Part shown: positions 1-10,214 of the stretch, one piece after another
How the letters are laid out: every line of letters starts with the position of its first letter
Numbering within the stretch: position 1 is the stretch's first letter
Source of the DNA: a virus
Lineage: Duplodnaviria; Heunggongvirae; Uroviricota; Caudoviricetes
IMG/VR virus record: IMGVR_UViG_2526164688_000015
Location: 1-10,214 of that record
DNA: 10,214 nucleotides
Reading direction: 5' to 3' (one strand)
Notes under the pieces: generated by a model
Told to the model about the DNA's origin: nothing
Database searches by the model: none
Seen by the model: the letters and a program-made list of their open reading frames with translations, nothing else
Made by a program: the position numbers and the translations under genes

Positions 1-322
1 CCCCGGCAAAAGCCTGAAAGAAATCGTGGTCAGCGCGCCGGACGGCGCGGTGTTCCGCTACGACGCGGACGCAGGCGCGCTGAGCGCCAGCGGCATGAAA
101 ACAGCCAGCCTGCAGGCATCCGTCAGCGTGACACTGGACGCGCCCGTCGTGGAATGCACAGACCTTCTGAGAACAGCGACGCTTGACGTCACAAAAGGGG
201 GAAAGATGAGCGGCAATATCACGCACAGCGGCGGCGATTTCACCTCAAACGGCATCACAGTGCATACGCATAAACACGGTGGCGTGAAAGGCGGCAGTGA
301 TTCGACAGGAGGCCCGCAGTGA
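1..322 (+). CDS. V: Baseplate spike/assembly protein V, C-terminal part (5' end lies outside the window)
   Basis: Frame is open from the window edge to TGA at 320-322. The C-terminus (GNITHSGGDFTSNGITVHTHKHGGVKGGSDSTGGP) matches the conserved end of P2 gpV-type spike proteins as I recall them. Stop overlaps the next gene start (GTGA). Position immediately upstream of W-J-I fits the family. Confidence 0.8.
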   Translation, partial: PGKSLKEIVVSAPDGAVFRYDADAGALSASGMKTASLQASVSVTLDAPVVECTDLLRTATLDVTKGGKMSGNITHSGGDFTSNGITVHTHKHGGVKGGSDSTGGPQ

Positions 323-669
323 CAACCCGCTACACAGGAATGAATCCGGACGGGACGGGAAACCTGAACGATACGGAGCACCTGAAACAGTCAGTCAGGG
401 ACATCCTGACCACCCCGCTGGCAAGCCGGGTTATGCGACGGGAATATGGCAGCCTTGTGCCTGATTTGATTGACGAACCCATGAATAACACCACGCGTCT
501 GCAATGCATGAGTGCTGCCGTGATTGCACTGACGCGATGGGAACCCCGCATTGCCCTGGACGCTATCGACGTTGTCTGGAAAGCGGGAGGCCGCGCCGGG
601 GTGACGCTGTCGGGTACAGTCATGCAGACCATGCAGAATGTTGAATTAACCATCACACTGAGGGAGTAA
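319..669 (+). CDS. W: Baseplate wedge protein W (GPW/gp25 family)
   Basis: 116-aa ORF starting at GTG 319 with AGGAGG at 307-312. The N-terminus MTTRYTGMNPDG...SVRDILTTPLASRVMRREYGS closely resembles recalled P2 gpW. Translationally coupled to V. Confidence 0.9.
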   Translation: MTTRYTGMNPDGTGNLNDTEHLKQSVRDILTTPLASRVMRREYGSLVPDLIDEPMNNTTRLQCMSAAVIALTRWEPRIALDAIDVVWKAGGRAGVTLSGTVMQTMQNVELTITLRE

Positions 670-672
670 ATC

Positions 673-1569
673 ATGCCTGCCGTTGACCTTTCCCAGTTAC
701 CAGAACCCGCCATCATCGCGGAGCCTGATTTTGAGGCAATTCTGGCTGACACAAAGGCCATGATGATTGCAGCTTATCCCGCCGAACAGCGTGAAGTCGT
801 TTCCGCCGCGCTGGAGCTGGAATCGGAACCCCTGAACGTTATCGCCCAGACAACAGCGTTTCGTGAAATGCTGTTACGCCAGCGGGTCAATGAGGGTGCA
901 CGCGCCTGCATGTTAAGCCACAGCGCCGGAACAGACCTGGACAACCTCGCGGGCAATATGAACACAAAGCGCCTGGTTATCACTCCGGCAACGGATACCA
1001 CCGACGCGGTGATGGAGAGCGACACCTCGCTGAGACTGCGGGCGCAGCGGGCGTACGACGGCCTGAGTGTTGCTGGCCCGTCAGGTGCATACGAGTATTT
1101 TGCCCGCAGCGCCAGCGGTCTGGTGCGTGATGCGCGGGCTATCAGTCCGTCTCCGGCAAATGTGACGGTTTCCATCCTGTCTACTGAAGGCGACGGCACA
1201 GCAACGGAGGCGTTGCTTAATACCGTTCGCGCCGTTCTGAATGCAGAGGATACCCGCCCGGTGGCCGACCGCCTGACCGTACAGAGTGCCAGAATCGTGA
1301 CATGGCGGCTGAATGCAAAACTGTACTTTTACCCCGGCCCGGAATCCGAACCTATTCTGGCCGCGGCGGAATCGTCGTTCAGGAAGTGGCTGGCTGAGCA
1401 GGGGCTTATCGGTCAGGACGTGGCGTTGTCCGCCATTGCTGCCGCACTGCATGTACACGGTGTGCAACGCGTGGAGATAATCGAACCCACACAGAATATG
1501 GCCATCAGCGACATACAGGCGGCGCGCTGTGAGTCATTTACCATCAGCGAAGGTGGGCGCAATGAGTAA
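673..1569 (+). CDS. J: Baseplate assembly protein J
   Basis: 298-aa ORF with ATG 673 and a GAGGGAG RBS at 659-665. Near-collinear similarity to recalled P2 gpJ (MPxxDLxQLPxP...ESEPL...RQRVNE...GLSVAG..GAY.Y..RSA...SPSPA.VT.S.LS...RPVADR.TVQSA...PGPESEPI...LHVEGVQRVE). Confidence 0.93.
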   Translation: MPAVDLSQLPEPAIIAEPDFEAILADTKAMMIAAYPAEQREVVSAALELESEPLNVIAQTTAFREMLLRQRVNEGARACMLSHSAGTDLDNLAGNMNTKRLVITPATDTTDAVMESDTSLRLRAQRAYDGLSVAGPSGAYEYFARSASGLVRDARAISPSPANVTVSILSTEGDGTATEALLNTVRAVLNAEDTRPVADRLTVQSARIVTWRLNAKLYFYPGPESEPILAAAESSFRKWLAEQGLIGQDVALSAIAAALHVHGVQRVEIIEPTQNMAISDIQAARCESFTISEGGRNE

Positions 1570-2170
1570 TTCACTGTTACCGCCATCAGCCAGCAGTTTC
1601 ATGCGTTGTGCCGAAGCCGTCGGAACGCGCATTACAGACATTCCGGTAGACCTCAACACGCTGTGGTCGCCGGACACATGCCCGGTGCATCTGCTGCCTT
1701 ATCTCGCCTGGGCATTTTCCGTTGACCGCTGGGACCGCAACTGGCCGGAGGAAACAAAGCGCCAGGTGATTCGCGATGCGTGGCTGATACACCGACACAA
1801 GGGGACCATCAGCGCACTGCGAAGAGCCGTGGAGCCTCTCGGCTACCTGATTGAAGTAAAGGAGTGGTGGCAACTCAACGAGGAGCCGGGAACATTTCGC
1901 ATTGTTGTCGGAGTACTTGATCAGGGCATCACCGATGAAATGTATCAGGAACTTGAGCGCCTTATTGCGGATGCAAAACCAGTAAGTCGCCATCTGACGG
2001 GGCTGGCGATCAGCCTGAGTGTGAACGGAAAGATTTTCGTTAGTACGGGATGCTATCACGGCGATGCCCTGACGGTTTATCCCTACACCCCGGAGTCCAT
2101 TATTGTCGAAGGGGATTATTTCCCGGCCCCGGCCATTCATTTAATTGATAATCTGAGAGTAAACGCATGA
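1562..2170 (+). CDS. I: Tail protein I (baseplate)
   Basis: ATG 1562 overlaps the J stop (ATGAGTAA) and is preceded by GAAGGTGGG. The product MSNSLLPP...IRELWSPDTCP..LLPYLAWAFSVDRWD..WPE..KR.VIRDA...HKGTI.A.RR.VEPLGYLI.V.EWW resembles recalled P2 gpI. The ORF track's start at 1529 is an in-frame upstream ATG and less likely. Confidence 0.88.
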   Translation: MSNSLLPPSASSFMRCAEAVGTRITDIPVDLNTLWSPDTCPVHLLPYLAWAFSVDRWDRNWPEETKRQVIRDAWLIHRHKGTISALRRAVEPLGYLIEVKEWWQLNEEPGTFRIVVGVLDQGITDEMYQELERLIADAKPVSRHLTGLAISLSVNGKIFVSTGCYHGDALTVYPYTPESIIVEGDYFPAPAIHLIDNLRVNA

Positions 2171-3558
2171 CAGTGAAATACTACGCCATTCTGACTAATC
2201 AGGGCGCAGCACGGCTGGCTAACGCGACGATGCTCGGCAGTAAGCTGAATCTGACGCAAATGGCCGTTGGTGATGCGAATGGTGTCTTGCCGACACCAGA
2301 CCCGGCACAGACAAAACTGATTAATCAGAAACGCATTGCACCGCTGAATCTTCTGAGTGTTGACCCGAACAACCAGAGCCAGATTATTGCGGAGCAAATC
2401 ATCCCTGAAAACGAGGGAGGATTCTGGATCCGTGAGATTGGTCTTTATGATGATGAAGGTGTACTCATTGCGGTGGCAAACTGCCCGGAAACGTACAAAC
2501 CGCAGTTGCAGGAAGGCAGTGGACGCACCCAGACTATCCGCATGATTCTGGTTGTCACGAACACCGAAGCCATCACGTTGAAAATCGACCCATCTGTGGT
2601 TCTGGCAACCCGTAAATACGTGGATGATAAAGTCCTGGAATTAAAGCTGTATGTGGATGACCAGATGAGAAACCACATTGCCGCACAGGATCCCCATACC
2701 CAGTATGCACCGAAACATAATCCGACACTCACCGGAGAGCCAAAAGCGCCGACACCGCCCGCAGGAAGTAACACCACACGGATTGCGACCACTGCGTTTA
2801 TACAGGCCGCAATTACAGCGCTGATTGGCGGTGCACCTGCCACGCTGGACACGCTGAAAGAAATTGCCGCGGCCATTAACAATGACCCGAAATTCAGTAC
2901 CACCATTAACAATGCGCTGGCACTCAAAGCGCCTCTGTCGAGCCCGGCACTTACCGGAACGCCAACAGCACCTACAGCGGCACAGTCGGCCAACAATACA
3001 CAGATTGCCACCACGGCTTTTGTGAAATCAGCAATTGCGGCAATGGTGGGTTCTGCCCCTGCGGCATTGGATACACTGAATGAACTGGCGGCGGCACTGG
3101 GGAATGATCCGAACTTTGCCACGACAATGCTTAATGCGCTGGCAGGTAAACAACCGCTGGACAATACGCTGACTAATTTGAGTGGAAAGGATGTAGCTGG
3201 TCTTCTCGCATACCTTGGTTTGGGAGAAGCCAGATATGTCATTCAGCGAGGAGCTAATGCCAATGGTGCGTGGATACGCTGGTCAGATGGTGCAATAGAA
3301 GTCTTTGGAACGGGGGGTTCTAATGATAATGGACTGGCTAAAGTCGTTTATCCAATTGCGCTACCTAAGCTTTCACGTTTTATCAGCATAGCGGAAAGAA
3401 TAGGAACGGATTATGGGGGCACATCTAATAACGTTCACGTTTCAATGATCGTGGATGACCAGGTCACTAATACCGGTTTTTATGTCCGCTGCCAGATGTA
3501 CGACGGAACACCATCAACAAGTGCTTTTTCCTGGAGGGTTTATTGTGCGCCTGTTTAA
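2167..3558 (+). CDS. H: Tail fibre protein H (conserved N-terminal/shaft part fused to the currently expressed variable tip)
   Basis: 463-aa ORF with ATG 2167 overlapping the I stop (ATGA). The N-terminus (AVGDANGVLPTPDPAQT...GGFWIREIGLYDDEGVLIAVAN.PETYKP...GSGRTQT.RM) and the shaft repeats (NSPALTGTPTAPTA...NTQIATTAF...LDTLNELAAALGNDPNFATTMLNALAGKQP) match recalled P2 gpH/Mu S-type fibres. The last roughly 110 aa lie downstream of the crossover site at 3203-3228. Confidence 0.9.
   Translation: MTVKYYAILTNQGAARLANATMLGSKLNLTQMAVGDANGVLPTPDPAQTKLINQKRIAPLNLLSVDPNNQSQIIAEQIIPENEGGFWIREIGLYDDEGVLIAVANCPETYKPQLQEGSGRTQTIRMILVVTNTEAITLKIDPSVVLATRKYVDDKVLELKLYVDDQMRNHIAAQDPHTQYAPKHNPTLTGEPKAPTPPAGSNTTRIATTAFIQAAITALIGGAPATLDTLKEIAAAINNDPKFSTTINNALALKAPLSSPALTGTPTAPTAAQSANNTQIATTAFVKSAIAAMVGSAPAALDTLNELAAALGNDPNFATTMLNALAGKQPLDNTLTNLSGKDVAGLLAYLGLGEARYVIQRGANANGAWIRWSDGAIEVFGTGGSNDNGLAKVVYPIALPKLSRFISIAERIGTDYGGTSNNVHVSMIVDDQVTNTGFYVRCQMYDGTPSTSAFSWRVYCAPV
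2728..3159 (+). repeat. Two tandem 70-aa fibre-shaft repeats (about 2728-2937 and 2950-3159, period about 222 nt) inside H
   Basis: Repeat 1 LTGEPKAPTPPAGSNTTRIATTAFIQAAITALIGGAPATLDTLKEIAAAINNDPKFSTTINNALALKAPL aligns with repeat 2 LTGTPTAPTAAQSANNTQIATTAFVKSAIAAMVGSAPAALDTLNELAAALGNDPNFATTMLNALAGKQPL. The pattern is typical of phage tail-fibre repeat units. Confidence 0.7.
3203..3228. repeat. Left recombination (crossover) site for the DNA invertase, hix/gix/pix-like, inside the H coding sequence
   Basis: 26-bp imperfect palindrome TTCTCGCATACC-TT-GGTTTGGGAGAA with the AAACC/GGTTT core typical of Hin/Gin/Pin sites. The 14 bp at 3215-3228 are a perfect inverted repeat of 4814-4827. In the H frame the site encodes ..AYLGLGE... 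Confidence 0.7.
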
Positions 3559-3742
3559 TCCTGTTACTTTGACTGAAGTAATCCCCGGTCTTCATGACGT
3601 GACCGGGGCTGTTGAATTACCAGAAGATAACTGGTTTTTTACTGCATCTGAAATCCCTGAAGGAATGGAAATATCTGTTAACGAGAAGGGAGAACCCATT
3701 CTGATTGAGATTAAACCGTCTCAGGAGGAACTGGCCAGATGA
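3545..3742 (+). CDS. Small 65-aa protein downstream of the fibre tip; possible truncated or minimal tail-fibre assembly chaperone
   Basis: GTG 3545 with a strong GGAGG RBS at 3533-3537 (7-nt spacer), overlapping the H stop. The position is exactly where a tfa gene is expected. It is too short for a canonical Tfa of about 175-200 aa, and its 3' end overlaps the convergent antisense tfa by about 30 bp. Function is inferred from position only. Confidence 0.45.
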   Translation: MRLFNPVTLTEVIPGLHDVTGAVELPEDNWFFTASEIPEGMEISVNEKGEPILIEIKPSQEELAR

Positions 3743-4316
3743 CATCTGGCGCGGTGCTGGTATCTGTTGCCATCACCGCGTCAGTGTAATCCAGCACGGC
3801 GTTAAGTCGGGTGTTTTCTGCCTGCGTCAGCTTCCGCCCGGCCTGCAATTTCAGTTGAATCAGACTAATGGAAACCATTGCAGCATCAATCAGCGACTGC
3901 CGCTGTGTTTCTGCCATGTCTACTGCTGCTCTATGCTGTGCCTCGGTATCCGTCACCCATTTCTCACCATCCCATTTATCGTATGGCGTTAACGGGGCGA
4001 TAGTGGTTGTCTTTTCAGGGTAATCACCCGGAGCTGTGATTTCTTTTGATTCTCCTGTTTCGGTGCTATAGACGATTTCACCGCGATGGTCTGGCACATA
4101 TTCCCATGAGTTAAAATCTGCAGAACGGCAAATTGCATAACCAGCTTTATATGAGCCAGGAGCATCTAAACAGGAACATGCCGGGATACCGACACCCACA
4201 GCAAGATATTCGGTTGATGTGGAAATATATTCTCGTGTTTCACCATCATAATTATAAACGGTAATATCTCCCGCCTTTGTGGCGATGAGTTCCTTATTTA
4301 ATATAGCTTTATCCAT
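3711..4316 (-). CDS. Tail-fibre assembly protein (chaperone for the alternative, currently silent fibre tip)
   Basis: 201-aa ORF. ATG at 4316-4314 overlaps the stop of the upstream tip cassette (TGATG), with a GAGGG RBS. The size and the C-terminal region (...AETQRQSLIDAA...LQAGRKLTQAENTRLNAVLDYTDAV...STAPDVIWPVPP) are typical of Tfa/gpG/U-family chaperones. Confidence 0.8.
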   Translation of the reverse strand: MDKAILNKELIATKAGDITVYNYDGETREYISTSTEYLAVGVGIPACSCLDAPGSYKAGYAICRSADFNSWEYVPDHRGEIVYSTETGESKEITAPGDYPEKTTTIAPLTPYDKWDGEKWVTDTEAQHRAAVDMAETQRQSLIDAAMVSISLIQLKLQAGRKLTQAENTRLNAVLDYTDAVMATDTSTAPDVIWPVPPETV

Positions 4317-4867
4317 CAGGCAGCCCTCACGATATAATTAAAGGCAATGTTACGGGGTCGATTTTCGTTTGCAGTTGGAACAATTCTTGAAGCATCAAGG
4401 CCAATCACTTTTGGGTAAACACCGCCCTCGGACCTTTCTGTCACCATACTTCTGACTAAGGAGAAATAACTATTGTTCGTTGAGGGGTTCAAAGGCACCA
4501 CTGCCCCCTTAAACGAGCCTACTGATTCCCATATTGAATAATTTTCGGTGTTTACAGTCTTGAACTCACCATAGATATTACGTATGGCATCGCCCTGAGC
4601 GGATAATATTGTTCTCCCCGCATCCGCACTACGCCCATCATCCCAGCCACGAATAAATTCACCGCGTAAATCAGGCAATTTATTTGTCGGGTAAGCCTTT
4701 GCCAGTTCCGGGTATTCTTCAGCAGAAAAAGCCGCACCATTGCATTTCAGCCAGCCTGTCGGCGGAGTGGCGGAAGGCCACGGAACAGGCACACCGACAG
4801 GTAATGCAGAGCCTTCTCCCAAACCAACGTTTGTGAAAATGCAGAGATAACGGGTAACTGGCATCAT
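4316..4867 (-). CDS. Alternative tail-fibre C-terminal (receptor-binding tip) cassette, silent in this orientation
   Basis: 183-aa ORF on the minus strand. After the crossover site it encodes ..NVGLGEGSALPVGVPVPWPSATPPTGWLKCNGAAFSAEEYPELAKAYP.NKLPDLRGEFIRGWDDGR..DAGR, the widespread phage tail-fibre tip/collar motif. Inversion would fuse it in frame to the H shaft at the shared GLGE junction. Only the first 9-18 codons, including the ATG-ATG start, lie outside the invertible segment. Confidence 0.75.
   Translation of the reverse strand: MMPVTRYLCIFTNVGLGEGSALPVGVPVPWPSATPPTGWLKCNGAAFSAEEYPELAKAYPTNKLPDLRGEFIRGWDDGRSADAGRTILSAQGDAIRNIYGEFKTVNTENYSIWESVGSFKGAVVPLNPSTNNSYFSLVRSMVTERSEGGVYPKVIGLDASRIVPTANENRPRNIAFNYIVRAA
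4814..4839. repeat. Right recombination (crossover) site for the DNA invertase
   Basis: TTCTCCCAAACC-AA-CGTTTGTGAAAA. The first 14 bp are a perfect inverted repeat of 3215-3228, and the central dinucleotide (AA versus TT) is consistent with inverted orientation. The site lies 56 bp upstream of the invertase start, as in Mu gin, P1 cin and e14 pin. Confidence 0.7.
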
Positions 4868-4894
4868 CTCCGGTTTTTATTCAGGGGGATGCTC

Positions 4895-5485
4895 ATGCTT
4901 ATTGGTTATGTTCGCGTATCAACAAATGACCAGAACACGGAATTGCAGCGTAACGCGCTGGAGTGCGCAGGATGTGAACTGATTTTTGAAGATAAAATCA
5001 GCGGAACGAAATCAGCCAGACCGGGATTGAAAAAACTGCTCAGAACGCTATCAGAAGGAGATACGCTGGTTGTCTGGAAGCTGGACAGGCTGGGCAGGAG
5101 TATGAAACACCTGATCACGCTTATTGAGGAATTGCGGGAAAAAGGTGTTAATTTCCGTAGCCTGACGGACAGCATTGACACATCAACACCCATGGGGCGT
5201 TTCTTTTTTCACGTCATGGGAGCTTTAGCAGAAATGGAACGTGAATTAATTGTAGAGCGTACACTGGCCGGGCTGGCAGCAGCACGAGCACAGGGACGCA
5301 TTGGCGGACGTCGCCCGAAGTTGACAAAAGAACAACATGAGCAAATAGAAAGGCTGATTAAAAACGGCCATGACAGGAAACAACTGGCGATCATTTACGA
5401 CATCGGTATATCGACGATTTATCGTTATCACCCTGTAGGCGATATACAGGCTGAAGAAACAACCGGGCAGACTCAGGGAAAATAA
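4895..5485 (+). CDS. pin: Serine recombinase, DNA invertase of the Pin/Gin/Hin/Cin family
   Basis: Start at the second ATG (4895), which has an AGGGGG RBS at 4883-4888; the track's 4889 ATG has no spacer. The product MLIGYVRVSTNDQNTELQRNAL...LVVWKLDRLGRSMKHLI...FRSLTDSIDTSTPMGRFFFHVMGALAEMERELIVERT...GRIGGRRPKLT is almost diagnostic of this family, with the catalytic Ser in the YVRVSTNDQ motif and a C-terminal HTH. Confidence 0.95.
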   Translation: MLIGYVRVSTNDQNTELQRNALECAGCELIFEDKISGTKSARPGLKKLLRTLSEGDTLVVWKLDRLGRSMKHLITLIEELREKGVNFRSLTDSIDTSTPMGRFFFHVMGALAEMERELIVERTLAGLAAARAQGRIGGRRPKLTKEQHEQIERLIKNGHDRKQLAIIYDIGISTIYRYHPVGDIQAEETTGQTQGK

Positions 5486-5515
5486 AAAACCGCTAATCTG
5501 ACCATTAGCGGTTTT
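5486..5515. terminator. Bidirectional rho-independent terminator between the convergent invertase and tail-shaft operons
   Basis: Hairpin ACCGCTAAT-CTGACC-ATTAGCGGT (5489-5512) flanked by an A run on the 5' side and a T run on the 3' side. Sits in the 37-bp gap between the pin stop (5485) and the U stop (5523). Confidence 0.65.
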
Positions 5516-5522
5516 GCGTTAA

Positions 5523-6017
5523 TCAAAACAGCCCTTTAACGGAGCTGGCCGCGCTGTTAAGGGATGATGTGACCTTATCTTTGAAGCCGGACAGCATATC
5601 ACTGAACGATGAGGATTGCAGGCGCTCCCGCAAATCCTCATCACAGCGTTCAAGAGTCAGTGAAAATTCTATCTTTTTCGCCTTACCGTAGCGATCAAAC
5701 TCGGAACGGGTCGTATTCGTTTCAGTCAGCACATACATGCCGTAAATCTGCCCGACGCCATCAATCAAAGGCCAGGGTCGTCCTGTATACGCCTGCGTGG
5801 TCAGCAGCGACAGCGACACTTCGCCACCTGTAATTTCAGGATAAAGCACACCAGAAAGAACGATGCGATCATCACCTGCACCGATATACTGCCAGCTTGC
5901 TGAACGGTTAACGCGTTCATTTTTCACATGCCGCCAGCTTTTGTTTTGCTGTAACTGCTGATGCGGCAGCGTGCGCAGCTCAAAAACAAACATGCCGTAG
6001 ATCATCATCATGGCCAT
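5523..6017 (-). CDS. U: Tail protein U (P2 gpU family)
   Basis: 164-aa ORF directly downstream of the tape measure gene with a GAGGAG RBS. The motifs FELRTLP.Q.LQ....WRH...R.....Q..G.G.D.I.LSGVLYPE.TGG and GKA.KI.F.L.L resemble recalled P2 gpU. Confidence 0.85.
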   Translation of the reverse strand: MAMMMIYGMFVFELRTLPHQQLQQNKSWRHVKNERVNRSASWQYIGAGDDRIVLSGVLYPEITGGEVSLSLLTTQAYTGRPWPLIDGVGQIYGMYVLTETNTTRSEFDRYGKAKKIEFSLTLERCDEDLRERLQSSSFSDMLSGFKDKVTSSLNSAASSVKGLF

Positions 6018-6023
6018 GACTCC

Positions 6024-8867
6024 TCAATCTTTATCGTAAAAACTGCCACGCCCGGCACGGGCGCGCCGTTCCATTTCTGCCCTGACCATTTCACCGACCA
6101 GTTTCGCCAGTTCGCGGGGATTCTGCGTAACAACGTTATGCAGATGAACATGAATTTCACCACCAAATCCGGAGGCAACAGGCTCCCGGTTACGGGAAGT
6201 TACAGGAACTGATGCCACTGGAGATCGTATAGCCTCCGCCACCGGGCGGGAGCTGGCCGCAACAACAGGGACCAGCGCCGGAGGCAGCGGAGCCGGGACC
6301 ACGGGTGTGATATTAATTGCGGGGGCAGGCTTACTGACCTGCGCAATCTTCCGCTCCTGCCACTCCCCACGAACAGCAAGTGCTCGGGGCAGGTTTTTAA
6401 AGACAATATCGCCGGGGCCAATGCGTTTTTTCGTCTCCTCAACCAGCTTACCTGTGTTATCAGCAATTTTGCTGAGTCTGCGCAGCGTACCGGTATTGCT
6501 GTCTGTGAGCGGTTTATTGTCTTTGGGGTTATCACCTCCGGTGCCATTGCCATTTTCCACAGGCTTCGGCGGATTGATTTTCGCCAGGTCCCCCTGAAGC
6601 AAGGCAACCTTGTCCTGAAGAATGGCCGCACGCTGTGCGTCTTCGATTTTCTTGCGCGCCCTTTCCGCTTCATCCGGAAGCACACCAAGCTTTTCAAGTA
6701 TCCACGCCAGCGTATCCAGCAACATTTTTGCAGGTGTCAGAACAAGTTGTAACGCACCGCCAAGAACGTTACCGAATATCTCGCCAGCACTGGTACATTT
6801 ATCCAGAGTTTCCTTGCTGGACTCCATCGGTGACAGCAGCGATTTAAACCAGTTAAACACCTGGCTGATCCCACTCCCGATTGCGTCAAAAACAGGACCA
6901 AACCGTTCAAAGGTTTCGCGCAACGGGGTCAGCCTTTCCATAATCCCGCTGAACACCCCGGCAAAAAATGCCCTGATGGGATCCCAGTATTTCCAGATAA
7001 GAACGGCAGCTCCGGCAAGCGCAGCCACGATAAGACCAACCGGACTGAACAACGCCCCGATAGCGCCTCCCAGTAAAGAAACGGAACCCGTCACCATTCC
7101 CCATAGTGCTGGCAGAACCCTGACAGCATTCATTGATCCGGTCAGGAGGGAAAAACCAAGACGCAGTTTTGCCAGCGGGCCAGCAAGCACACCAATAGCC
7201 AGCGACAACGAGCCAACCGTTGCAGTCATTGCCAGCAGTGCACCGCCTGCAATCAGTAGCTGGCGCGTCAGTGCGGGATGGGCCTGCGCCAGCGCCGTCA
7301 CCTTTGATACCACACGCGTGAGCCACTGCGTGACAGAACGCAGCGGACCGTCAATCAGATCTGCAATGCGGATGCGCAACCCTTCCCATGCACTGCTGAG
7401 TGATTTCAGATCGCCGTCAAGGTTGTTGGCCATAACCTTTGCCGTGCGTTCAGCCTCACCGCGCGCGCCTTCAAGTTCTTTTCTCAGTTTGGGTAAGGAG
7501 CCGTCACCTGCCGCATCAACGAGGGCCATAAATGATGTGAAAGCCTCTTCTCCGGCAATGTCCTTAAAGAACGATACCCGGTCAACTTCCCCGTATTTGC
7601 GGGTAGCTTTATAAAGGTCAGCCAGCACATCCTCCATCGGGCGCATTTTGCCCCCGGCATCCGAGACAGACACGCCAAGCTCTTTCAGCGCCTCTGCTGC
7701 CGCCTTTGGCGGTGATGCCAGACGAGCCAGGCTGGCACGCATTGCCGTACCAGCATCACTCCCCCTGATCCCCATATTCGCTAGCACGCCCGCCATCGCT
7801 GCGGCCTGCTCCAGCGATATTCCCAGCTTACCCGCCACCGGACCTGCATATTTCATGGTTTCACCCAGTGCGCGAAGGTCAGTGTTGGTACGGGTAAACG
7901 CTGCGGTGAGTGTGTCGCCGACCCGGTCCATCTGGTCAGCAGAAAGACCGAACTGCGTCAGAATATTTGAGCCAATATCCGCCGTCTCACCGAGGTCCAT
8001 ACCGCCAGCCGTTGCCATGCTCAGTACGCCAGGGAGCGCAGCCTGAATGGCCTGCGGTGTGAAGCCAGCCATTGCAAGAAATGCCTGCCCACTGGCGGCA
8101 TCGCCTGCGGTGAACTGCGTTTCAGAGCCCAGTTTTAACGCCTGCTCACGCAGCGCCTTAAACTGCGGGCTGTTTTTGTCGATTCGCGTCAGTGCCTGAA
8201 CGCGGGACATCTCTTTCCCGAACCCGATCGCAGGCTGCAAAAAACGCCCGGCAGCATAGCCGCCCGCCGCTGCCGCACCAATTGCCAGCGCACCACCTGT
8301 TTTCAGTTTTCCCGCTGTTTCCTGCGCGCGCGAATACCGCTCACGCGCCCGCGTTACACGCGCAAGCGCCTGCCGTTCGCGTTCAAGCTGGTTGTTGTAC
8401 TGTTCGGTGCGTCTGATGGCCTGCTGGATGGTGTTATCGCTGCCTGTCAGGGAAATGCCGTGGCGTTTCAGCTCTCCGCCAAGCTCCCGCATTTTCTGAA
8501 TTTCCCGTGTGCGCGATTCATTCAGGCGTTCAAGCCGGGTGCTTAACTGCTGCATCAGCTTTTGTTGTTTTTCGCTGAGCACTGTACCCGTGCGTTGTAA
8601 CTGATTAAGGGCGTTAAGCTGGCGTCGTGCTTTCACGATACCCGCATCCGCTTTACTGACAGCGTCCCGGGCGCGCTCAAATGAACGCGCCTGACGCTCG
8701 AGATTTTTGATCGCCCCCTGCGTTCGCTGGATGGAGTCACCAAACTGCCCCATCAGGCGGCGGGCGTTTTCGGCAGGCCGGGTCAGCCTGTCAACGGCGC
8801 TGAAAGCGCCCCGGATGTCAAGAGTCTTCATTATCTGCATTCCCGCTGCGAAGTGCCGCCCGCTCAC
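6024..8867 (-). CDS. T: Tail tape measure protein T
   Basis: 947-aa ORF immediately downstream of E/E'. It has a coiled-coil-like N-terminal region, a long central hydrophobic Ala/Gly/Leu-rich region and a Pro-rich C-terminal segment. The start is uncertain: GTG 8867, or ATG 8840 or 8831. It overlaps the end of the E' frame, as in P2. Confidence 0.9.
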   Translation of the reverse strand: MSGRHFAAGMQIMKTLDIRGAFSAVDRLTRPAENARRLMGQFGDSIQRTQGAIKNLERQARSFERARDAVSKADAGIVKARRQLNALNQLQRTGTVLSEKQQKLMQQLSTRLERLNESRTREIQKMRELGGELKRHGISLTGSDNTIQQAIRRTEQYNNQLERERQALARVTRARERYSRAQETAGKLKTGGALAIGAAAAGGYAAGRFLQPAIGFGKEMSRVQALTRIDKNSPQFKALREQALKLGSETQFTAGDAASGQAFLAMAGFTPQAIQAALPGVLSMATAGGMDLGETADIGSNILTQFGLSADQMDRVGDTLTAAFTRTNTDLRALGETMKYAGPVAGKLGISLEQAAAMAGVLANMGIRGSDAGTAMRASLARLASPPKAAAEALKELGVSVSDAGGKMRPMEDVLADLYKATRKYGEVDRVSFFKDIAGEEAFTSFMALVDAAGDGSLPKLRKELEGARGEAERTAKVMANNLDGDLKSLSSAWEGLRIRIADLIDGPLRSVTQWLTRVVSKVTALAQAHPALTRQLLIAGGALLAMTATVGSLSLAIGVLAGPLAKLRLGFSLLTGSMNAVRVLPALWGMVTGSVSLLGGAIGALFSPVGLIVAALAGAAVLIWKYWDPIRAFFAGVFSGIMERLTPLRETFERFGPVFDAIGSGISQVFNWFKSLLSPMESSKETLDKCTSAGEIFGNVLGGALQLVLTPAKMLLDTLAWILEKLGVLPDEAERARKKIEDAQRAAILQDKVALLQGDLAKINPPKPVENGNGTGGDNPKDNKPLTDSNTGTLRRLSKIADNTGKLVEETKKRIGPGDIVFKNLPRALAVRGEWQERKIAQVSKPAPAINITPVVPAPLPPALVPVVAASSRPVAEAIRSPVASVPVTSRNREPVASGFGGEIHVHLHNVVTQNPRELAKLVGEMVRAEMERRARAGRGSFYDKD

Positions 8868-9356
8868 GCCAGCTAACCACTTCGCCGGGCGTCATCATGA
8901 AGATTTCGGCGGGCGACCAGTTAAAAATGGCGGCAATATCCGCCACCAGATCTTCGATGTGCTCAAAGCACACCAGGGTGATTACGCTGCCGTCTCCTGC
9001 ACGCTCTTCGCGCCAGAGTCTGGCTCGCTCATAAAATTTACAGCCACAGCGCACAACTGAATAAAATCGCGTGACGACATTTTTTTAATCATCACTTCAT
9101 CCAGTCGTGGCGAAGTCACGCGAGGCAACAGCGTGAACATGGTATCCGCTTTCAGATTCAGCACATCAGACAGCGACAGACCACGCAGGGATCCCGCCTG
9201 CTCAATAGCCCCGGTGATTTCCACATATGTGATTTTTTCGGCACCACGCTCAATTGGCCGGGAAAGTTTTACACCACGTTCGACAGCCATATCCTCACCT
9301 GCCGTCACATCATCCGCTACGGTGTTATTCCGGGTTTCAGTATCGATGTCTTTCAT
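8818..9356 (-). CDS. Tail assembly chaperone E+E' (predicted programmed -1 frameshift product)
   Basis: The ORF at 8818-9054 is in the -1 frame relative to E by coordinate arithmetic. That frame opens just after a TAA at 9087-9085 and runs to a stop at 8818, overlapping the T start. An A7 tract at 9080-9086 lies in the overlap. The architecture matches the P2 E/E' and lambda G/GT paradigm. Confidence 0.6.
8982..9356 (-). CDS. E: Tail assembly chaperone E (zero-frame product)
   Basis: 124-aa ORF with ATG 9356 and an AAGGAGA RBS. It lies between the tube and tape measure genes, which is the conserved position of the frameshifting chaperone pair. Confidence 0.8.
   Translation of the reverse strand: MKDIDTETRNNTVADDVTAGEDMAVERGVKLSRPIERGAEKITYVEITGAIEQAGSLRGLSLSDVLNLKADTMFTLLPRVTSPRLDEVMIKKMSSRDFIQLCAVAVNFMSEPDSGAKSVQETAA
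9080..9086 (-). other. Candidate slippery site (A7 on the mRNA) for the E to E' -1 frameshift
   Basis: The E frame reads ATT-AAA-AAA-ATG (I-K-K-M). The homopolymeric A7 run sits exactly where the -1 frame becomes open. Confidence 0.5.
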
Positions 9357-9379
9357 CAGTTGTCTCCTTTTCAGTCAGA

Positions 9380-9398
9380 GGCGACGCACTGCGCCGCC
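9380..9398 (-). other. GC-rich stem-loop in the FII-E intergenic region (possible attenuator or mRNA stability element)
   Basis: The mRNA sequence GGCGGCGCA-GU-GCGUCGCC can form an 8-bp stem including one G-U pair. There is no downstream U tract, so it is not a canonical terminator. It lies in the 55-nt gap between the tube gene stop and the E RBS. Confidence 0.35.
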
Positions 9399-9411
9399 TG
9401 CATATTACTTA

Positions 9412-9924
9412 TCAGCCAAGCCCAAGCGCGGAGCGAATGCGGTCAGGCACAATGTCCTTGCCGTCCTTCCGGTAGATGTGGTTCAACAGGTCGATTTCCC
9501 ACAGCGGGCGATCGTTAACACTCAGCTTGTAGTAGGTGTTTTTGACAGCGTATGTGTGTGATGTGGCTTCGCCCTGTTTGGCCTCCCCCATATCAATTTC
9601 CGTCACACGCCCGCGCATCTCGATTTCATACAGATCGCTTTCTGCATCGGTGTAATATTCACCCGCAAAACGCAGCAGCGTGCCGTCAATCGTGCCGCCA
9701 TACTTAAGGAACAGTGCACGAACAGCTCCACCCATGACAAAGCTCGCATCAAGCGCGGAGTCGTCCAGACCGAGATCAATACTTACCGCCCCCATCATGC
9801 CACCACCACGATAACTGTCGGTTTTGCGCGTCAGTTTGGGCGGCGTGACGGATGTCACTTTACCCACTTCGTTTTCACCATCCACAAACAACGTAAAAAA
9901 GCGAAGATGTTTTGGTACAGCCAT
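9412..9924 (-). CDS. FII: Major tail tube protein FII
   Basis: 170-aa ORF with ATG at 9924-9922 overlapping the sheath stop (TGATG) and a GGGAGG RBS. The size and position immediately after the sheath gene fit P2 FII-family tube proteins. Confidence 0.88.
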   Translation of the reverse strand: MAVPKHLRFFTLFVDGENEVGKVTSVTPPKLTRKTDSYRGGGMMGAVSIDLGLDDSALDASFVMGGAVRALFLKYGGTIDGTLLRFAGEYYTDAESDLYEIEMRGRVTEIDMGEAKQGEATSHTYAVKNTYYKLSVNDRPLWEIDLLNHIYRKDGKDIVPDRIRSALGLG

Positions 9925-10214
9925 CAGGCACCTCCCAGCACCGCAAATGCGGGACCAAAGAATTCATCAGTAAACGTCTGGTAAAGCTCCATGTCTTCCA
10001 GCGGGGGAACGGGCGTATATTTGTAGCGAATACGCACACGCCCCTGACGTAAATCCGTGGTGCCGTTATCCACCACGTCATACCAGCACTCCGCGCCAAT
10101 CAGTTTCCCGGCAGTAACCAGTGAATCCAGTTTTGCCCTGATGGCACTGATAACATCCTTCACGTTCGCAGGCGTCAGTGGACTGTCGATGGTTTCAAAC
10201 TGCGCTTCCGCAAT
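9924..10214 (-). CDS. FI: Tail sheath protein FI, C-terminal part (5' end lies outside the window)
   Basis: The reading frame is open from the window edge (10214) down to TGA at 9926-9924. The C-terminus ..WYDVVDNGTTDLRQGRVRIRYKYTPVPPLEDMELYQTFTDEFF.. and its position upstream of the tube gene fit contractile sheath proteins. Confidence 0.85.
   Translation of the reverse strand: MAEAQFETIDSPLTPANVKDVISAIRAKLDSLVTAGKLIGAECWYDVVDNGTTDLRQGRVRIRYKYTPVPPLEDMELYQTFTDEFFGPAFAVLGGA

Follow-up and report, generated by a model that had tools for sequence, protein, structure and literature searches.

The 10,214-nucleotide (nt) window analysed here (positions 1 to 10,214 of IMG/VR virus record IMGVR_UViG_2526164688_000015) is the tail module of an Escherichia coli P2-like prophage. 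It contains the baseplate genes W, J and I, a tail-fibre gene, an invertible segment, a serine invertase and, on the opposite strand, genes for U, tape measure, E, tube and sheath. We focus on the end of the fibre gene, where the currently fused variable tip is short and is followed by an open reading frame (ORF) of only 65 amino acids (aa) at the place usually held by a tail fibre assembly (Tfa) chaperone. Sequence comparisons place this small protein as a stand-alone N-terminal domain of short Tfa proteins, belonging to a family that travels with one kind of fibre tip, and we consider it rather probable that it acts on that tip.

Two unequal cassettes in one invertible segment

The fibre gene (2167..3558, plus strand) encodes a P2 H-like protein of 463 aa with a Pfam Phage_tail_fib N-terminal domain (9e-63); in the E. 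coli chromosomal locus L001, RefSeq labels the fibre 'phage tail protein'. Its constant shaft extends from 2167 to about 3215 and is followed by the tip, 109 aa long (3230..3558, plus strand; coding 3230-3555 plus stop), which has a gp53-like match below the Pfam gathering score, discussed below. The fibre stop codon, TAA, is at 3556-3558. Within the tip codons for F-S-W-R-V the sequence reads GGAGGG (3533..3538), a Shine-Dalgarno (SD) motif lying 6-7 nt before the GTG start of the 65-aa ORF (3545..3742, plus strand), whose beginning overlaps the fibre end by 14 nt. The product, which we call mini-Tfa, has a core of residues 1 to ~57 and a variable tail of residues 58-65.

The opposite cassette, silent in the present orientation, is built on a larger scale. 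It holds a full-length Tfa' of 201 aa (3711..4316, minus strand; Pfam Caudo_TAP 6.7e-30, phrog_105 'tail fiber assembly' 1e-95) and an alternative tip within an ORF of 183 aa (4316..4867, minus strand; Pfam Collar 1e-15, phrog_523 'tail collar fiber protein' 9e-79), of which ~165 aa (4316-4812) lie inside the repeat and join the shaft after inversion. The 65-aa ORF and the antisense Tfa gene converge and overlap by 32 bp (3711-3742), and residues 58-65 of mini-Tfa are the part encoded in that overlap. A first-pass annotation made from the sequence alone had described a sense tip of about 110 aa followed by a 65-aa ORF with a strong ribosome binding site, a silent tip of about 166 aa with a full-length Tfa, and an overlap of about 30 bp between the converging genes, and all of this anatomy holds. 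Its expectation that a chaperone of 175-200 aa should follow the tip does not always apply, as related elements have a Tfa of 128-145 aa at this position. It had also raised the possibility of a frameshift or sequencing error hiding a full-length tfa; there is no frameshift that would restore one, and the downstream DNA is wholly taken up by the antisense Tfa gene.

The segment is bounded by two 27-nt inverted repeats, a left crossover site at 3203..3229 and its partner at 4813..4839, which are 85% complementary. The left repeat lies within the fibre reading frame, where it supplies the codons for ...LLAYLGLGEA, and inverted copies from other genomes align from ~3212-3215 to ~4836-4839. Just beyond the right repeat is a serine DNA invertase of the Gin/Hin/Cin/Pin type (4889..5485, plus strand, 198 aa; Pfam Resolvase 5e-52, HTH_7 3e-12). 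The same 1.6-kb segment is found at 99% identity or more in both orientations among E. coli chromosomes: the short-tip fibre of L001 has 463 aa and the long-tip fibre of L002 519 aa, and this difference of 56 aa equals 165 minus 109 and so matches an exchange of tips by inversion. Apparently clonal chicken isolates (DG341-1, DG342-2, DG343-1 and DG351-2) have chromosomes of equal length (5,067,659 bp) and differ in the orientation of the segment, which suggests ongoing inversion within a clone. The locus is thus a host-range switch of the Gin/Pin type that works by inversion within a P2-like prophage, and the switch itself is already known, textbook biology.

A conserved small gene tied to its tip

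The 65-aa ORF corresponds to RefSeq WP_001236015.1, a 'hypothetical protein' identical in many genomes. A homolog search covering 5.8 billion proteins gave 141 clusters, 47-90 aa long among the 120 listed; the typical length of the family is 57-65 aa, and longer entries reflect upstream start choices or read-through past the stop. The protein search located members in Escherichia, Enterobacter, Salmonella, Kosakonia, Cronobacter, Hafnia, Citrobacter and Yersinia, at identities down to ~60%, and a tip-seeded search added Erwinia, Kalamiella, Pantoea and Xenorhabdus, for at least 12 genera of Enterobacterales. The family alignment has 13 invariant and 17 near-invariant columns within a 55-residue core, followed by a short variable C-terminal tail; NWFF and EIPEG belong to the invariant surface. 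In a codon comparison of ten loci, the proportion of nonsynonymous differences (pN) was 0.18-0.35 against a saturated synonymous proportion (pS) of 0.63-0.97, and the ratio of nonsynonymous to synonymous rates (dN/dS) was 0.03-0.23 where computable. These codon data indicate that the ORF is under strong purifying selection. An AlphaFold2 model of the protein has a mean predicted local distance difference test score (pLDDT) of 86.9 and is small and mostly beta-strand, with the last ~8 residues poorly defined. The protein has no Pfam or NCBIfam family, the only matches there being noise (DUF5979, YPDG). In PHROGs it is matched by phrog_5400, a family of unknown function (E 2.6e-23), over profile positions 1-66 of 145 only.

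Conservation across genera rules out a spurious ORF, and the reading as a recent pseudogene was likewise rejected. An upstream ATG at 3455 was considered as the start and rejected, since homologs in all genera begin with MRLFNP and have their own SD. The concern in the first-pass annotation that the ORF might lack conservation or a coding signal in related elements is refuted by the dN/dS values and the spread over at least 12 genera. As to a longer tfa in relatives, which had also been envisaged, there is no long version of the close family among the 5.8 billion proteins.

The same data bear on the proposal that the small ORF is a decayed chaperone, that is, a functionless remnant of a full tfa truncated by a deletion between the two convergent chaperone genes. 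It is true that the ORF ends just at a domain boundary, beyond which long homologs pass into their helical region, and that the 8 residues at its end vary, are modelled with low pLDDT and fall within the overlap with the antisense Tfa gene. However, dN/dS stays low across genera with synonymous sites saturated, the length is constant in more than 140 clusters whose divergence shows that they are not one recent clone, the SD and start are conserved, and the ORF is kept where there is no convergent gene, including elements in which it is the sole gene at the position of P2 gene G. The conservation data already refute the decayed-remnant reading, to which we assign a negligible probability.

The fibres that precede distant homologs of the 65-aa protein end in the same ~110-aa tip, recognisable by the motifs NANG.W..WSDG, YPI.LP, GF..RC and FSWRV.YAPV, and this tip is conserved in Kosakonia, Cronobacter, Yersinia, Erwinia, Xenorhabdus and Pantoea. 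When species-representative genomes were scanned for the tip only, with a tip alignment as query, the small ORF lay directly downstream in all seven loci found (Kalamiella, Erwinia, Pantoea and four in Xenorhabdus); a scan of the same genomes with a single tip sequence gave no matches. Nearly all full-length tips among 64 IMG/VR loci also have the small ORF as the next gene downstream. The exceptions are L041, with an insertion sequence (IS), and L072, whose tip has only 35% identity and sits in a different fibre arrangement. In L041 an IS3-family element (2830-4096; orfA 115 aa, orfB 248 aa) has landed precisely between the tip stop and the small ORF, in a silent cassette, and deletes the first codons of the small ORF. 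The linkage of the small ORF to the knob tip is thus strict.

The junction between the two genes is conserved as well. A TGGAG(G/A) motif lies within the F-S-W-R-V codons at constant distance in 15/15 loci examined, and in nearly all loci the small ORF starts, with ATG or GTG, inside the fibre gene, 14 nt short of its end, with L058 and L060 differing in that the small ORF begins ~20 nt after the tip stop, without overlap. Such a conserved SD and overlapping start argue for translational coupling and matched production of both proteins. The start codon is itself tied to the tip: in the E. coli lineage, Erwinia and Kalamiella the overlapping tip codon is TGT (..YCAPV) and the small ORF starts with GTG, whereas elsewhere a TAT codon (..YYAPV) gives ATG, so that a single nucleotide at window 3543-3547 alters both proteins.

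The overlap could also be read in another way, as the site of a programmed frameshift that fuses the small ORF to the fibre as an intramolecular, chaperone-like extension. The overlap is conserved, and P2-like phages use a -1 frameshift elsewhere, at E/E'. Against this, an ATG or GTG with a well-spaced SD is conserved in all loci, the ORFs of L058 and L060 begin past the tip stop, and no canonical slippery heptamer was found at 3545-3558. This alternative is speculative and, in our estimation, highly improbable.

When the window is compared with Yersinia, the small ORF has a pN of 0.19, whereas that of the tip is 0.49. The small ORF therefore evolves more slowly than the tip, a pattern more in keeping with a protein that touches a conserved surface than with one that binds a receptor (an adhesin).

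Tip and small ORF occur in several settings. They lie inside invertible segments in most E. coli loci, in Cronobacter and in some Xenorhabdus loci. At least 12 P2-like elements that have no invertase (including Kosakonia L004, Erwinia L010 and IMG/VR L046, L048, L049, L052, L054, L065, L067 and L071) carry the small ORF as the sole gene between fibre and sheath, the position of P2 gene G, and such occurrence without a convergent gene rules out that the small ORF is a mere by-product of the antisense Tfa gene. In a lambdoid prophage of Yersinia enterocolitica the module follows gpJ and a 285-aa side fibre and adjoins the integrase. In L057 (2450-4528) and L060 (127-964) both invertible cassettes are of the short kind, each a knob tip with a mini ORF, one of a 61-aa MRLFNP type and the other of a 71-aa MWYWNP type, the two being convergent with an overlap of ~20 nt. 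Tip and small ORF move between these contexts as a unit.

Kinship with Tfa and a proposed role at the tip

Scoring 1.84 billion representative proteins exhaustively against a profile hidden Markov model of the family gave 44 hits. The distant ones are longer: the domain makes up residues 1 to ~58, and a recognised chaperone C-terminus comes after it. This is a Caudo_TAP C-terminus in P0133, P0138 and P0150 (129-132 aa; Pfam 1e-20 to 1e-28), a Phage_tail_APC match in P0141, P0142 and P0137 (125-147 aa; 1.3e-9 for P0141, with those of P0142 and P0137 weaker and below cut-off) and a DUF4376 C-terminus in P0156 (180 aa; Pfam 1.5e-22). The family profile reaches P0133 with an E-value of 1e-12 and P0138 with 6e-8, and P0138 aligns from about residue 18 with P2-type Tfa proteins. 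By hhalign, the family matches residues 1-59 of the 128-aa Tfa of Cronobacter phage JK004 (gene_1) with a probability of 98% (E 8e-14), and this Tfa follows a tip with the same motifs. A weak match to phrog_188, 'tail fiber assembly protein' (E 3.6e-4), covers profile positions 71-116 of 207. What the 65-aa protein does not have is the C-terminal helical region with the motif W..YR..L..VD....WP..P: the ORF ends at residue 65, whereas the long homologs continue for ~70 more residues. On these profile matches the 65-aa protein is a stand-alone N-terminal domain of the short, ~130-aa Caudo_TAP Tfa proteins. Of the options offered in the first-pass annotation, a novel minimal chaperone is hence the best supported. 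The sister MWYWNP subfamily holds both short (~70 aa) and long (~130 aa) forms, which suggests that the C-terminal half was lost or gained more than once. We found no literature describing Tfa proteins that consist of the N-domain only.

Structure-based searches added little. Sequence searches of the Protein Data Bank (PDB) with the small protein, an extended profile, the tip and the 201-aa Tfa returned nothing meaningful, weak Rieske matches being due to chance, and a PDB structure search with the small protein found no neighbour, including the N-domain of Mu Tfa (5YVQ). In BFVD even the best structural matches are weak; among them are a 133-aa protein (probability 0.95) and, second-best, a 60-aa protein of the Pantoea phage LIMEzero (0.75).

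As for the tip, Gp53-like_C (PF21882) matches it at E 4.4e-4 with 21.2 bits, under the gathering score of 24.9, when the window sequence is used alone, and matches 9/9 aligned tip relatives, the best at 9e-8. We therefore classify the tip as a putative gp53-like head, or knob. A Pfam search of both parts, proposed in the earlier annotation, thus gave a sub-threshold family for the tip and none for the small protein.

Structural work on Mu Tfa and Pam3 gp25 presents Tfa as a modular chaperone, in which the distal fibre is bound by a variable N-terminal domain, and the C-terminal helical domain, which is conserved, forms trimers and is believed to drive assembly (summarised in PMC9608196). Since the 65-aa protein has the fibre-recognising half but not the half credited with assembly, binding to the knob is the most economical mechanism. 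The invertase flips the 1.6-kb segment between the repeats and so swaps the fibre end together with its partner gene. The silent cassette is the classical one, with a collar-type tip and a two-part Tfa chaperone of 201 aa, and the expressed cassette a compact one, with a 109-aa putative gp53-like knob and the 65-aa protein. We propose that the latter, translated by coupling to the fibre, would bind the knob of its own fibre, there giving minimal help with folding or alignment or else capping the tip, while the small knob may trimerise without a Tfa helical domain. We hold a tip-specific mini-Tfa that binds the knob, as chaperone or as cap, to be the leading explanation and a reasonably probable one, with both the binding and its function deduced from homology and gene linkage.

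Several observations weigh against this explanation. The published Tfa model treats the domain that is missing here as the conserved, functionally key part of the protein. Caudo_TAP (PF02413) does not match the 65-aa ORF even at E up to 1, and hhalign finds no similarity between the 65-aa family and the window's own 201-aa Tfa, so that the link to classical Tfa runs through the ~130-aa intermediates and phrog_188 and is not direct. The fold assignment of the tip rests on a sub-threshold Pfam match, and the AlphaFold2 monomer model of the tip, with a pLDDT of 52.7, is too poor for a fold search. Finally, gp53-like heads may fold unaided. The archetype, AP22 gp53 (PDB 4MTM), was purified as a trimer and its paper mentions no chaperone, and the fibre of Alteromonas phage A5, which has an AP22-like head, works without its chaperone, for which a role as a cap has been proposed.

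These last cases underlie the principal alternative, in which the knob folds alone and the 65-aa protein is a tip accessory, either a transient cap masking the receptor-binding site up to release or a small virion component that modulates adsorption. The earlier suggestion that the sense tip may need no chaperone survives in this form, as a rival about function. In its favour are the Gp53-like_C match of the tip family, the AP22 and A5 precedents, and the want in the 65-aa ORF of the C-terminal domain thought to drive assembly. On the other side, bona fide Tfa proteins have an N-terminal domain homologous to this protein and a gene at the same position, and the similar knob of JK004 is paired with a full short Tfa. 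We judge such an accessory role unlikely, although far less so than decay or frameshifting. It should be noted that it still includes binding to the tip, and differs from the mini-Tfa explanation only in what the binding does.

Related systems and implications

The organisation of the segment is that of the invertible regions of Mu (G segment, S/U and S'/U'), P1 (C segment) and e14 (P segment, Pin). An adjacent serine invertase is common to all, as are crossover repeats of ~26-27 bp in the fibre frame, a constant N-terminus outside the segment, two opposed cassettes of tip and partner that converge mid-segment, and the occurrence of both orientations in nature. Mu and P1 carry a full-length Tfa in both cassettes. 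Unlike Mu and P1, one cassette of the window combines a 65-aa N-domain protein with a knob of what is probably a different fold class. Among Caudo_TAP Tfa proteins (lambda Tfa, P2 G and Mu U, with the Mu Tfa N-domain solved as PDB 5YVQ) and for Pam3 gp25, the gene likewise stands directly after the fibre, and the 65-aa protein is homologous to the N-domain of short members (P0133, P0138, P0150 and JK004 gene_1); unlike them, it has no C-terminal helical trimerisation domain and is unmatched by the Pfam model. The distal heads of AP22 gp53 and of the Alteromonas phages A5 and V22 are lectin-like, and A5 and V22 have a dedicated partner gene downstream, but the chaperones of these two phages are much larger than the 65-aa protein and unrelated to it in sequence.

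Pantoea phage LIMEzero (L082, 4836-6459) offers a parallel of similar size. Its fibre ORF46 ends in a knob-like tip (..ITYPSAF..TGFSVHC..INWIAIGI), and the next gene, ORF47 of 60 aa, carries the annotation 'tail fiber assembly protein'; its product has a TM-score (query-normalised) of 0.49 to the model of the 65-aa protein. The hhalign probability is 21%, however, LIMEzero is an autographivirus and not a myovirus, and the function of ORF47 comes, as far as we found, from annotation only. LIMEzero may be an independent case of a knob with a mini-partner in a podovirus. In JK004 (L017, 1987-4387), gene_3 (417 aa) and gene_2 (119 aa) each have a knob tip after an 'LGE' junction motif of the sort typically seen at the crossover sites of invertases, and a Tfa (gene_1, 128 aa) comes after gene_2 but not after gene_3; the two may be alternative tips in this 94-kb phage.

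The remainder of the window, from 5523 to 10214, is a P2-type tail operon that converges on the invertase from the minus strand, with genes for U (5523-6017), the tape measure (6024-8867), E/E' (8818-9356), the tube (9412-9924) and the C-terminus of the sheath (9924-10163). The sheath comes next on the same strand in classical P2 as well as in L001 and L016. At least 80% of the junction region 5200-6100 is covered in 630 E. coli genomes, and the convergent operon is thus a common natural architecture and not a misassembly. Between the stop codons of the invertase and the convergent U-like gene lies a terminator-like hairpin with a 12-bp stem and T-runs (5486..5515), which probably terminates transcription from both sides.

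Tail-fibre tips and their chaperones set the bacterial targets of phages, tailocins and phage-derived delivery vehicles, and tip swaps usually fail unless the matching chaperone moves along. The ~60-aa partner family is widespread in Enterobacterales prophages, yet its members are called 'hypothetical protein' and are easily dropped by gene callers and engineers. Mini-Tfa is an unannotated family of relevance to the study and engineering of the host ranges of phages, and one practical rule follows, namely that the knob tip and the small ORF should be transferred jointly. The family is also a natural experiment on which half of Tfa is needed. We suggest, tentatively and with somewhat more doubt than assent, that a free domain of ~55 residues without trimerisation helices suffices as the dedicated partner in assembly for an entire class of gp53-like knob tips, and that the helical half has been lost, or its loss put up with, on repeated occasions (in the MRLFNP and MWYWNP types and possibly in LIMEzero). 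If this is true, mini-Tfa would be the smallest known tail-fibre chaperone, and tip and partner would form a cassette of ~500 bp that works in the tails of myoviruses, siphoviruses and perhaps podoviruses.

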